Below are positions 10,438 to 12,683 of a stretch of 18,579 bases of DNA, one piece after another. The notes below the pieces were generated by a model. It made no database searches, was not told the DNA's origin, and was given only the letters and a program-made list of their open reading frames with translations. The translations under genes and the position numbers were made by a program. Numbering within the stretch: position 1 is the first letter of the stretch; every line of letters begins with the position of its first letter. Source of the stretch: a virus (Duplodnaviria > Heunggongvirae > Uroviricota > Caudoviricetes); the IMG/VR virus record IMGVR_UViG_3300039366_000108; one strand, written 5' to 3'.

Positions 10438-11580
10438 ATGAATAAAACTTTAATTGCAACATTAGTCGGTATAGTAATGTTAACCGGATGTGGGCCAGAA
10501 GAGTTAACTCCAGAACAGAAACAGGAAGTAGCGGCTCTTAAAGCTGAACTGTCGCAAACGGAAGGTGAAATATCAGCAGCTAAGGAAGTTGACCAGCAGT
10601 TTTCTGGTGGGTTGATAAAAAATCTGACAACAGCAAGACTGGAAATATTAGGAACTAATAAAGCGCTTTTGGAACAGCGTATTAATGCTATTGAATCAGG
10701 CGCCAAAATTGATGTTGTTGTATCTGGAGTAAAACCTGATCCTGAGCTTGCTGCTTCAATTAAAACTGAAATTGACAGCTTAGATGCAAAAATCAACGAA
10801 GCCAAAGCTGATGCTCGTCAGTATAGTGGTGGTCTGATAAAGGTACTAAAATTATCTACTGTTGCCACTGAAGAGCAGACTATGGCAATGTTGCAGCAAA
10901 AGTACCTCACAGCCAAGTATGGCCTCGCTGAAGTTAAGCTGGCATCAGTACAAGATAATGACGCAAAAAACAGTACTGAAACGGAAGTAACAGCCAAAAA
11001 TTCCCAAGATCAACTTCCTTTACTCCCGCCAGCGGATGGTCCGTTTGGCTTAGAAGCCGGTCTTACACAGAAAAACATCGAAGATATGATCGGTGCTAAG
11101 CTCAAGCCACTACCAGACAGTGTGAATCTGTATACTTCTGATAAATTACCGAAGCAAAACGCAGATTTTGAAATGTATGGTTTGCTGATCTCCCCGAAAG
11201 CTGGTTTATGTCAAATACGGGCTTTAGGAAAAAATATTGATACTGATAGCTATGGATTGGCTCTTAAATCCAAGTTTGAAGAATTGAGTAATTCTTTAAG
11301 TTCTCTGTATGGAAAGGCTGATACTACAGACTTTTTGCTGGCTGGTTCAATTTGGAAAGATCCTCAGGACTGGATGAGGGGGCTAAACAAAAAAGAACGC
11401 TTCTTATCTGCCACATGGAAGGGAACAAAAGAAATACCATTAAAAAACAATATTGATACTATATCTATTGAGGCCAGAGCGAACAATTCCACTCAGGGAT
11501 ATGTCTATCTGCAGTACTCATTTACAAATGACGAAATTTGTCAGGCAGAAATTGAAGGGGCGAAAAAAAGTTCCCTTTAA
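10438..11580 (+). CDS. Lipoprotein (380 aa) with coiled-coil region and two internal repeats containing a (F/Y)SGGLIK motif
   Basis: Signal peptide plus lipobox (IVMLTGC); repeats QQFSGGLIKNL and RQYSGGLIKVL; AT-rich codon usage. Confidence 0.7.
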   Translation: MNKTLIATLVGIVMLTGCGPEELTPEQKQEVAALKAELSQTEGEISAAKEVDQQFSGGLIKNLTTARLEILGTNKALLEQRINAIESGAKIDVVVSGVKPDPELAASIKTEIDSLDAKINEAKADARQYSGGLIKVLKLSTVATEEQTMAMLQQKYLTAKYGLAEVKLASVQDNDAKNSTETEVTAKNSQDQLPLLPPADGPFGLEAGLTQKNIEDMIGAKLKPLPDSVNLYTSDKLPKQNADFEMYGLLISPKAGLCQIRALGKNIDTDSYGLALKSKFEELSNSLSSLYGKADTTDFLLAGSIWKDPQDWMRGLNKKERFLSATWKGTKEIPLKNNIDTISIEARANNSTQGYVYLQYSFTNDEICQAEIEGAKKSSL

Positions 11581-11593
11581 ACAATCCGTGCAA

Positions 11594-11620
11594 AGCCCCT
11601 TAGTAAGGGGCTGTTATATA
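11594..11620 (+). terminator. Candidate intrinsic terminator after the lipoprotein gene
   Basis: AGCCCC-TTAGTAA-GGGGCT stem-loop followed by GTTATATATT. Confidence 0.5.
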
Positions 11621-11644
11621 TTAATGTTCAACGTGGGGGATTAG

Positions 11645-11968
11645 ATGAAAGATAATCTAGCAAAACTAATTGAAAATACTTTAAAAGATATTCTATTAGC
11701 TAATGCTGCTCTAACATTCATTTTTGCAATACCAATGGCTATTATCAGTAGGCATGGGATGGGCATCACAATCTGGTTTATAACTGTGCTCATTGCACCT
11801 GCTCTGTGTGCAGTAGGTGCATGGCTTGTATCTCGAACATCCGGCCATGCTGAGGAGTTCTTTCATCGTCGGTGGGCTAAGCGAATTTATGTTTTTTATA
11901 CTCTTGCGGCTGCCGAGTTTTTGCTTGTGTACTCAATCGCGCAAATAATGAAAAATCTGATGAAATAA
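11645..11968 (+). CDS. Small membrane protein (107 aa, about 3 predicted TM segments)
   Basis: SD GGGGGA upstream; hydrophobic stretches LLANAALTFIFAIPMAII and ITIWFITVLIAPALCAVGAWLV. Confidence 0.55.
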   Translation: MKDNLAKLIENTLKDILLANAALTFIFAIPMAIISRHGMGITIWFITVLIAPALCAVGAWLVSRTSGHAEEFFHRRWAKRIYVFYTLAAAEFLLVYSIAQIMKNLMK

Positions 11969-12010
11969 TTAACAAGTTATTATCATGGAGCTTGTGGCTG
12001 TTAACCTGCA

Positions 12011-12250
12011 GTGAGGCGACAATCGTGTATTTATAAAAACTTCCCCTTTTCACTCCCCGCAGCTTCTTCTGCTATTGCCTTTATGTTTGCATGCACCAAC
12101 ATCTGCCATACCTTTGCAGAAAAATCAGAGCATTCAGTGCCGAAGGTTGGTTTATTGATGCTTTTCGTTTCATTTATTGCAATTGTCTCTGGTATCATTT
12201 CAATTTGTGCAATAATTGCAATTATTGTCATTCAGAAGGGATCATCATGA
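12011..12250 (+). CDS. Possible small hydrophobic peptide; start uncertain (GTG 12011, ATG 12082 or ATG 12157)
   Basis: ORF ends in TGA overlapping the next ATG (ATGA at 12247); C-terminal VGLLMLFVSFIAIVSGIISICAIIAIIVIQ looks like a TM helix; AAGGTTGG precedes ATG 12157. Confidence 0.3.
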   Translation: MRRQSCIYKNFPFSLPAASSAIAFMFACTNICHTFAEKSEHSVPKVGLLMLFVSFIAIVSGIISICAIIAIIVIQKGSS

Positions 12251-12414
12251 AAAATCACGGAGTAAAGCCAGTTTTACTTTCCCGGAGGCAGATCGAAGCC
12301 CTGCAACGCATCCAGGACGAAGAGCGTCAGAAATCTGTGCTTGGTGTGGCACCGTCGATTCATGTTATCGCTCGGCAACTGATGGATAAGGCACTTAAAG
12401 AGGTGAGACTGTGA
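12247..12414 (+). CDS. Hypothetical small protein (55 aa)
   Basis: SD AAGGGA upstream; stop overlaps next GTG start (GTGA). Confidence 0.45.
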   Translation: MKNHGVKPVLLSRRQIEALQRIQDEERQKSVLGVAPSIHVIARQLMDKALKEVRL

Positions 12415-12683
12415 AATTAAATATCAGAGTGGATAAACGCCAGCTATGGCAGAAAAAAGAGAACAGCGAGGCATTCAGGGCGTTGCTGGTGGAAAATCTT
12501 CAGCATCGGTTCAGTGGAGAGTTGCCTGATGCTCTGGGGAAGAAACTGGAATCCCTGACGGTGGAAATTGGCGATTATGGCTTTGTTGATGTTGAAAGCA
12601 CGACTGCCAACACAGAAATCGTAAAACAGGTCGTCAATGATGTAATGAAAACCACGCTTAGCCAGCCATCCTGGCGCAACTGA
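12411..12683 (+). CDS. Hypothetical protein (90 aa), coupled to the upstream 55-aa ORF
   Basis: GTG start preceded by AGAGGTGA; no family recognised. Confidence 0.45.
   Translation: MKLNIRVDKRQLWQKKENSEAFRALLVENLQHRFSGELPDALGKKLESLTVEIGDYGFVDVESTTANTEIVKQVVNDVMKTTLSQPSWRN

Follow-up and report, generated by a model that had tools for sequence, protein, structure and literature searches.

We analyzed the region from 10438 to 12683 of an 18,579-nucleotide (nt) stretch of DNA (IMG/VR virus record IMGVR_UViG_3300039366_000108, Caudoviricetes), hereafter called the window; coordinates refer to it unless another locus is named, and genes and sites lie on the plus strand unless stated otherwise. 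The window is a phage satellite of the phage-inducible chromosomal island (PICI) type at the tRNA-Thr gene (thrW) of Escherichia coli. The region encodes a 380-amino-acid (aa) lipoprotein of an unnamed family (10438–11580), a 107-aa membrane protein (11645–11968), a 55-aa basic protein (12247–12414), and a 90-aa protein (12411–12683). It is preceded by a PerC-family regulator gene of the satellite backbone (10016–10303; Pfam PF06069, E = 3.8e-32). The first-pass annotation, made from the sequence, had treated the open reading frames (ORFs) of the region, all of which exist in the window, as a single AT-rich envelope module carried as cargo by a phage-like element. Comparison with related islands bore out the AT-richness and the cargo status for the first part of the region, but the module itself proved to be composite, consisting of a cargo block and the start of the satellite's own conserved operon.

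The low-GC cargo block and the satellite backbone

The whole region is 100% identical to the chromosome of E. coli O78:H4 APEC E123 and is carried by 132 of 5,426 complete E. coli genomes (2.4%), including O104:H4 and 55989; its DNA had no match in the phage or plasmid collections. According to RefSeq, the island is inserted at tRNA-Thr between the proA and pao genes. It encodes, in this order, an integrase, a helix-turn-helix (HTH) protein, an AntA/B antirepressor, an Icd-like protein, small ORFs, DUF4222, a primase, ProQ/FinO, and PerC, followed by the studied region, further hypothetical proteins, and GapS1. E. coli phage-inducible chromosomal islands have this layout, and PICIs of the EcCICFT073/EcCIMP1 type have the common order int, regulators, pri, PerC, and then a packaging-interference operon. 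The published EcCIMP1 is located between proA and yagU, and the present island has the same location.

The limits of the cargo were defined by an island remnant of strain STEC383 (locus L008), which aligns to window positions 10061–10317 and 12168–13037 and has 18 bp in place of the 1,850 bp between them. Homology in the PerC part breaks off at 10317, and backbone homology restarts exactly at 12168. In the remnant, the genes directly after PerC encode the 55-aa protein, a 90-aa protein identical to that of the window, and a 181-aa protein. Since only 18 bp are present at this point in L008, the segment 10318–12167, which comprises the lipoprotein gene, its terminator, the 107-aa gene, and a spacer, is cargo. 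Its GC content is 39.8%, against 56.7% upstream and 47.2% downstream. Presence or absence in collinear relatives, deviating base composition, and an own terminator, three of the traits by which morons are recognized, were found. Together with the patchy carriage of the block, the 18-bp junction and the GC contrast make its cargo status nearly certain. The block would have been acquired horizontally, in an accessory hot spot downstream of pri-ProQ-PerC. The same stretch is occupied by a NUDIX hydrolase gene and a DUF2213 gene in another island (L007). In an island of strain FDAARGOS_1302 (L006, 5742–6955), an IS3 element replaces ProQ, PerC, and the lipoprotein gene, and the 107-aa gene and the backbone operon are retained.

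The 55-aa and 90-aa ORFs are part of the satellite backbone and not of the cargo. The notion of one envelope module is contradicted by the direct joining of PerC to the 55-aa ORF in L008 and by the occurrence of the lipoprotein elsewhere without its window neighbors. The ratio of nonsynonymous to synonymous substitution rates (dN/dS) was 0.05 for the lipoprotein gene (versus Klebsiella), 0.16 for the 107-aa gene, 0.12–0.18 for the 55-aa gene, and 0 for the 90-aa gene. All four ORFs are under purifying selection and, given these low values, encode proteins.

Architecture and family of the lipoprotein

The 380-aa protein begins with a signal peptide (10438–10491) that has a lysine (K3) in the n-region and an uncharged h-region. 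The sequence TLVGIVMLTGC fits the PROSITE-type lipobox rule ([LVI][ASTVI][GAS]C), with L-T-G-C as the lipobox and Cys18 followed by G-P-E. Residues G17, C18, G19, and P20 were unchanged across 20 homologues, so the lipobox proposed from the first reading stands. The protein is very probably exported and lipidated at the predicted Cys18. Asp at position +2 is the avoidance residue of the textbook Lol rule; since Gly occupies this position, the lipoprotein is predicted to reside in the outer membrane, probably in its inner leaflet.

Residues ~22–165 form a predicted N-terminal "stalk" (10510–10920) of two repeated antiparallel helical hairpins (aa 25–87 and 102–161) with (F/Y)SGGLI loops. The internal repeats around (F/Y)SGGLIK share 34% identity over 50 aa (E = 2e-7), and AlphaFold2 (AF2) modeled helix-loop-helix hairpins with helices at residues 25–53/59–87 and 102–126/133–161. 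The stalk profile matched the designed single-chain antiparallel coiled coil 9tls_A (E = 2e-4), its sole sequence match in the PDB. The two repeats and the coiled-coil-like character noted at first reading were thereby confirmed. The stalk is followed by a linker (aa 167–195; 10936–11022) that contains the most variable columns of the homologue alignment and is predicted to be disordered (pLDDT <50 for residues 162–207).

The C-terminal alpha/beta "GPFGL" head domain (aa 196–380; 11023–11577) was modeled by AF2 from a 58-sequence alignment as an antiparallel sheet backed by helices, with a pLDDT of 97.1 and a pTM of 0.90. The full-length model (pLDDT 59) was too poor for inter-domain geometry. 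Cys258 and Cys368 are invariant in full-length homologues and also appear in the consensus sequence of the broader alignment of head domains, and this conservation suggests that they form a disulfide in the periplasm. Foldseek found no match of the head in the PDB at E ≤ 1e-3; the best BFVD match was a 182-aa lipoprotein of Erwinia phage Midgardsormr38 (E = 8.6e-7, TM 0.61).

At E < 0.1, no match to the lipoprotein was found in Pfam, NCBIfam, or PHROGs apart from sub-threshold signal-peptide and coiled-coil matches, and there was none in PADLOC (PADLOC-DB 2.0). The earlier statement that no family could be named thus agrees with all four libraries of hidden Markov models (HMMs). Full-length homologues of ~380 aa occur across Enterobacterales with 60–90% identity, and an exhaustive search (E ≤ 1e-3) returned 2,452 clusters at 50% identity when matches to either half were counted. 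Judged from these sequences, the lipoprotein represents an uncharacterized but very widespread moron family. The gene is too rare for a housekeeping envelope protein, with carriage in only 2.4% of complete E. coli genomes, and this reading was dropped. A spanin was ruled out on sequence, as a C-terminal transmembrane segment and an Rz/Rz1 arrangement are missing.

The protein is modular, with the stalk and the head each recombining with other partners. Elsewhere, the stalk is fused to VasI/TagO, to PG_binding_1, and to at least two unnamed domains, and the head alone makes up ~195-aa proteins in which signal peptide cleavage falls just before GPFGL. VasI was the only family found in an HMM scan of 58 head and 28 stalk homologues. 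The fusion to PG_binding_1 is encoded on plasmid p2 of Paracoccus sediminicola (L095, 3998–5296), where it is the divergent neighbor of a BREX cluster (BrxR-like WYL, BrxA, BrxB, and BrxC).

Genomic contexts and proposed function of the lipoprotein

The lipoprotein gene moves singly. In a tblastn search over all fetched loci, the window neighbors were absent except for the 107-aa protein in close relatives, and they are not shared in the Xenorhabdus, Pantoea, Enterobacter, Yersinia, and Leclercia contexts. The 52 IMG/VR loci comprised 17 satellites of the window type, 14 satellites with another primase type, 15 prophage-like loci, and 6 that could not be classified. All 15 prophage-like loci have a PHROG-confirmed tape-measure protein (TMP) gene, which in about 12 of them starts within ~1.3 kb after the lipoprotein stop codon. 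In a Leclercia siphovirus prophage, the lipoprotein gene is preceded by those for the major tail protein and DUF6246 and followed by that for TMP, and the Xenorhabdus homologue lies in the tail region of a lambdoid prophage. In an Enterobacter satellite and a Yersinia satellite, the homologue is located directly downstream of primases of two different types, and the Klebsiella and Edwardsiella homologues are found in thrW island remnants. A homologue in a Deferribacter island is accompanied by genes for Nmad2/Nmad3, an AAA_14 ATPase, a helicase, a transposase, and an integrase.

A homologue on an Enterobacter plasmid lies near an Abi-family gene and a bacteriocin locus. The lipoprotein could be an orphan immunity protein or neutralizer of toxins acting in the periplasm (type VI secretion system [T6SS] and Rhs effectors, colicins, or bacteriocins) that spreads as an interbacterial defense. 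We consider this unlikely; for T6SS/Rhs immunity, no confident fold or sequence match combined with an adjacent cognate effector was found for the lipoprotein.

The first element to be named a moron, HK97 gene 15, is flanked by the genes for the tail assembly chaperone and TMP, and it prevents the injection of genomes (PMC3594210). In PICIs, immune genes occupy the accessory region adjacent to pri (PMC11364771). The lipoprotein gene sits in both of these genomic slots, which are known for exclusion and immune genes. In one satellite (L042), the accessory region contains a lipoprotein homologue, a second lipoprotein, a PF14373 superinfection-immunity protein (E = 3.9e-16), and an M78/DUF4411 pair. 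The PF14373 (Imm_superinfect) protein, encoded at L042 positions 7808–8131 beside the lipoprotein homologue, has a zinc ribbon; the pair, an HTH-M78 peptidase and DUF4411, is located at 3754–5381 on the minus strand.

We propose an exclusion function because homologues share the TMP-adjacent slot of HK97 gp15, because the gene lies in the PICI accessory hot spot by pri, and because a PF14373 protein is its neighbor in a related satellite. After export and lipidation at Cys18, the lipoprotein would sit in the inner leaflet of the outer membrane, where the two coiled-coil hairpins and the flexible linker of ~30 residues would hold the 185-aa disulfide-containing head in the periplasm. After adsorption of an incoming siphovirus, the head could bind a phage component, most likely the tape-measure/tail-tip apparatus pushed through the periplasm. 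Such binding would block genome entry and protect the cell carrying the satellite or prophage, that is, act as superinfection exclusion. The best explanation of the region as a whole is that the lipoprotein is moron-type cargo, a phage-exclusion lipoprotein placed beside the regulatory operon of the satellite, and we put it forward tentatively, with a little less than an even chance of being correct. Superinfection exclusion as the function of the lipoprotein, suggested by analogy, is possible but somewhat more doubtful than that, and the tape measure or tail tip as its target is more doubtful still.

Several points weigh against this explanation. The case for exclusion is one of association, drawn from gene position and neighbors, and adjacency to TMP genes may merely mark a site permissive for insertion. 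A homologue is present at a Pantoea chromosomal site without an obvious mobile element, and tblastn of 50,697 sequenced phage genomes found no family member. At 380 aa, the lipoprotein is far above the size of known exclusion lipoproteins. The head has no informative structural relative, and therefore no binding partner could be named. Finally, the interval 10304–10437 upstream of the gene contains no match to the sigma-70 consensus, and inspection by eye revealed only weak promoter candidates.

Transcription of the gene bears on another possibility. Directly 3' of it lies a hairpin with an 8-bp GC-rich stem (11594–11612; −13.1 kcal/mol, z = −2.5). The terminator called here by the first-pass annotation is thus supported by a stable hairpin, but its U-tract is poor. 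The structure travels with the lipoprotein gene, since a hairpin with a T-run was also found directly 3' of the gene in both prophages scanned (L002 and L019). The lipoprotein could serve the cycle of the element itself, being expressed late with the tail genes and preventing re-adsorption of progeny to debris or modulating lysis. Homologues do lie in the same orientation within tail operons, beside TMP, and no own promoter was detected in the window. However, an own terminator would interrupt a tail operon, related islands without the lipoprotein keep their backbone, and the gene is also present at non-mobile chromosomal sites, which makes such a role improbable.

As a functional class, the proposed exclusion lipoprotein would most resemble HK97 gp15, Cor, Llp, and Imm. 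It is a member of none of these families: the sequence tests were negative, and its architecture (380 aa, coiled-coil stalk, swappable head) differs. Cor of phages phi80, N15, and mEp167 and Llp of T5 are outer-membrane lipoproteins that protect the carrier cell and are encoded near tail or receptor-binding genes. These proteins of ~60–80 aa inactivate the FhuA receptor and have no coiled-coil stalk. Searches of Pfam, PHROG, and NCBIfam gave no family-model match that would assign the lipoprotein to Cor, Llp, Bor, or TraT, and nothing indicates that it masks a receptor. The role of Cor as an outer-membrane exclusion lipoprotein is documented (PMC3594210). Homologues of the lipoprotein share the slot of HK97 gp15 in several prophages, and both are envelope proteins encoded by genes with a GC content unlike that of the surroundings. 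However, gp15 is a small YebO-like inner-membrane protein, whereas the lipoprotein has 380 aa with a stalk and a head, and the two are not related in sequence. The Tai genes adjoin pri of PICIs, are also found in prophages and P4-like satellites, have a homologue in phi80, and act on tail assembly (PMC11364771). They share the accessory hot spot with the lipoprotein gene, but Tai action is cytoplasmic, whereas the lipoprotein has an export signal. Homology to Tai was not supported by tblastn of the lipoprotein against the 50,697 phage records, among which the presence of phi80 is unconfirmed.

The lipoprotein could also be a lysogenic-conversion factor for envelope fitness or virulence, in the manner of lambda Bor/Iss or TraT, with a part in serum resistance, adhesion, or envelope stability; it might, for example, tether the outer membrane to the cell wall. 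Lambda Bor/Iss is a prophage moron encoding an outer-membrane lipoprotein (PMC3594210). The carriage of the gene by the pathogenic lineages APEC O78, O104:H4, and 55989, its position next to PerC, a virulence-linked regulator, and the fusion of the stalk to a peptidoglycan-binding domain in Paracoccus would be in line with such a factor. So would the weak sub-threshold matches to Lpp and LpoB, in which an N-terminal lipid anchor and a helical or extended spacer likewise place the functional end deeper in the periplasm. These matches reached only 17 bits against a cut-off of 110 for LpoB and 13 against 108 for Lpp, and both are core-genome proteins, whereas the present lipoprotein is patchily distributed on mobile elements. 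Lambda Bor has ~100 aa and is tied to serum resistance; the lipoprotein has no Pfam Lambda_Bor match, nor was any similarity to Bor, Iss, or TraT found in Pfam or NCBIfam. In addition, members of the family are widely found in Enterobacterales from plants, insects, and the environment and reach far beyond this order, and this range argues against a host-specific virulence role. We regard an envelope fitness or virulence factor as unlikely, no more and no less so than immunity to periplasmic toxins.

If exclusion is nevertheless the function, the lipoprotein may found a large, unnamed class of modular "stalk-and-head" periplasmic anti-injection lipoproteins with a coiled-coil anchor of two hairpins, whose interchangeable heads would recognize the TMP/tail-tip complex and which would have been spread beside tape-measure genes by temperate siphoviruses and satellites. 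Such lipoproteins would act neither by masking a receptor, as Cor and Llp do, nor by a block at the inner membrane, as gp15, SieA, and Imm do. This joint claim is rather unlikely to hold in full. Prophages and phage satellites are a main reservoir of anti-phage genes, of which exclusion factors acting at the envelope are the least catalogued; the lipoprotein family is large and has neither a family model nor a close solved structure. If genome entry is blocked, the family would matter for the choice of therapeutic phages against E. coli, Klebsiella, and Enterobacter and would give a handle on the poorly understood passage of siphovirus DNA across the periplasm.

The 107-aa gene, the direct repeats, and the backbone operon

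The 107-aa protein contains three hydrophobic segments (residues 16–34, 39–57, and 81–99), in agreement with the three-transmembrane protein described before. No match was found in Pfam, PHROGs, NCBIfam, or PADLOC, and the family consists of only 17 clusters, each at least 67% identical. In the neighborhoods examined in E. coli, Klebsiella, and Edwardsiella, the gene directly follows a closely related lipoprotein gene with a spacing of 64 nt. This constant order and spacing, together with purifying selection on both genes, would be expected if the two proteins acted jointly as an envelope system of two components, such as a periplasmic sensor with an inner-membrane effector that aborts infection. 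Against this, the 107-aa family is small and confined to close relatives, a terminator hairpin separates the two genes, and more distant lipoprotein homologues (47–77% identity) occur without the 107-aa gene in at least six other contexts. The lipoprotein therefore does not need the 107-aa protein, and a two-component system is improbable, about as much as a role in the element's own cycle. The 107-aa ORF is a real gene but a young, lineage-specific passenger.

Two degenerate copies of the heptamer TGGGGCT follow at 11986–12000, as revealed by alignment with Edwardsiella relatives. In three Edwardsiella tarda genomes, the heptamer forms a tandem repeat of ~5 to 9 copies just after the 107-aa gene (L021, ~8342–8383; L022, ~8342–8376; L023, ~8342–8404).

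The small hydrophobic peptide suggested by the first-pass annotation is contained in a 79-aa ORF (12011–12250), which is probably not a gene. In L007, L008, and three Edwardsiella loci it loses the ATG, shifts frame, or gains stop codons. Two DNA blocks beneath this ORF stay invariant across the same loci, and the conservation of DNA under a broken frame reads as a regulatory site. These blocks are direct repeats of 16 bp (TTTCATTTATTGCAAT and TTTCAATTTGTGCAAT; jointly written TTTCAWTTWKTGCAAT), located 30 bp apart at 12168–12183 and 12198–12213, just upstream of the 55-aa ORF. They are the sole two matches to the motif in the window (0.3 expected) and are invariant in islands that are only 64–69% identical around them. 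The first repeat coincides with the point at which backbone homology resumes. We read the repeats as the putative operator/promoter of the operon headed by the 55-aa gene; candidates for the factor that binds them are PerC, the 55-aa protein, and a helper protein. RefSeq contains an antisense coding sequence overlapping them (12031–12231, minus strand; 66-aa hypothetical protein WP_047091673), which is probably a miscall since its frame is broken in L008. Annotation of such islands would gain from treating both the hydrophobic and the antisense ORFs as probable non-genes and the operator-like repeats as marking the operon start. No Rfam family was found within 9300–13800.

The 55-aa protein (pI 10.5) is encoded by the first gene of the backbone operon, and its strand-helix-helix pattern suggests a ribbon-helix-helix-like DNA binder. 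The overlap of stop and start codons with the 90-aa ORF, noted before, is a GTGA at 12411–12414, and RefSeq gives the same calls. Homologues of the 55-aa protein with 41–65% identity head the equivalent operon, at the same position, in diverged satellites (Pantoea, Tatumella, and Klebsiella-type). The partner encoded next in diverged satellites is unrelated, either a 108/109-aa protein or a NUDIX hydrolase. For the 90-aa protein, relatives are lacking beyond this island type. Neither protein had a match in Pfam, NCBIfam, PHROGs, PADLOC, or the PDB; an LRR-kinase PDB match of the 90-aa protein was rejected as a chance hit of a single motif. A weakly supported hairpin follows the 90-aa ORF (12690–12710; −12.5 kcal/mol, z = −1.9).

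Next in the operon is the gene for the 181-aa HTH protein (12765–13310), whose N terminus resembles that of the terminase small subunit (TerS; phrog_57, E = 2e-6; HTH_17, E = 2e-4). This protein, with its TerS/excisionase-like N-terminal HTH, has conserved counterparts in islands of Yersinia (57% identity) and Klebsiella (36%); neither it nor the 90-aa protein had a protein match in the phage collection. Compared with EcCICFT073/EcCIMP1-type PICIs, it shows no detectable similarity to the solved RppC (no phmmer match at E ≤ 1 and nothing meaningful in the PDB), and the window has no lambda cosN within 2 mismatches. Despite these negative sequence tests, the TerS-like HTH leaves room for an Rpp-like working principle. 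The 55-aa and 90-aa genes are not described in the literature compared on these PICIs, and the RefSeq protein accessions of the region are mentioned in no paper.

A toxin-antitoxin pair had been considered for the 55-aa and 90-aa ORFs, along with a regulatory pair. The small size of both genes, the overlap of the first stop codon with the second start codon, and the basic, DNA-binder-like character of the first product, which many antitoxins share, would fit this possibility. However, toxin and antitoxin families gave no match to either protein, the pair keeps a fixed place as the first genes of the satellite operon and was never a free-standing cassette in the loci seen, and the 55-aa protein is combined with unrelated proteins in other satellites. 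A toxin-antitoxin function is accordingly very improbable, and a regulatory pair is plausible. Beginning at 12168, the direct repeats, the 55-aa DNA-binding-like protein, the coupled 90-aa protein, and the TerS-like HTH protein would make up a satellite operon for regulation or packaging interference.

Homologues of the 55-aa gene were also seen in satellite-like elements carrying a tape-measure homologue: L042–L053 and L057 (IMG/VR), L086 (9322–14246, Pantoea septica), and L087 (9841–13449, Tatumella). Their gene order is AlpA, antirepressor, primase, PerC, accessory genes, the 55-aa homologue, a ~108-aa protein, TMP, and then DUF5681 (TerS-like) and DUF6246. The tape-measure homologues are full-length (857–1202 aa; phrog_1538/1107, E < 1e-150), and the stretch from the primase to the TMP contains no head genes. 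Such elements may be a type of satellite that carries its own tape measure and chaperone.

The sole known defense gene found in the island of the window is a GapS1-family anti-phage gene at its distal end (15403–17001; NCBIfam, E = 2e-130), in a stretch with 30–32% GC. Its position is consistent with the 3'-end defense hot spot of PICIs.

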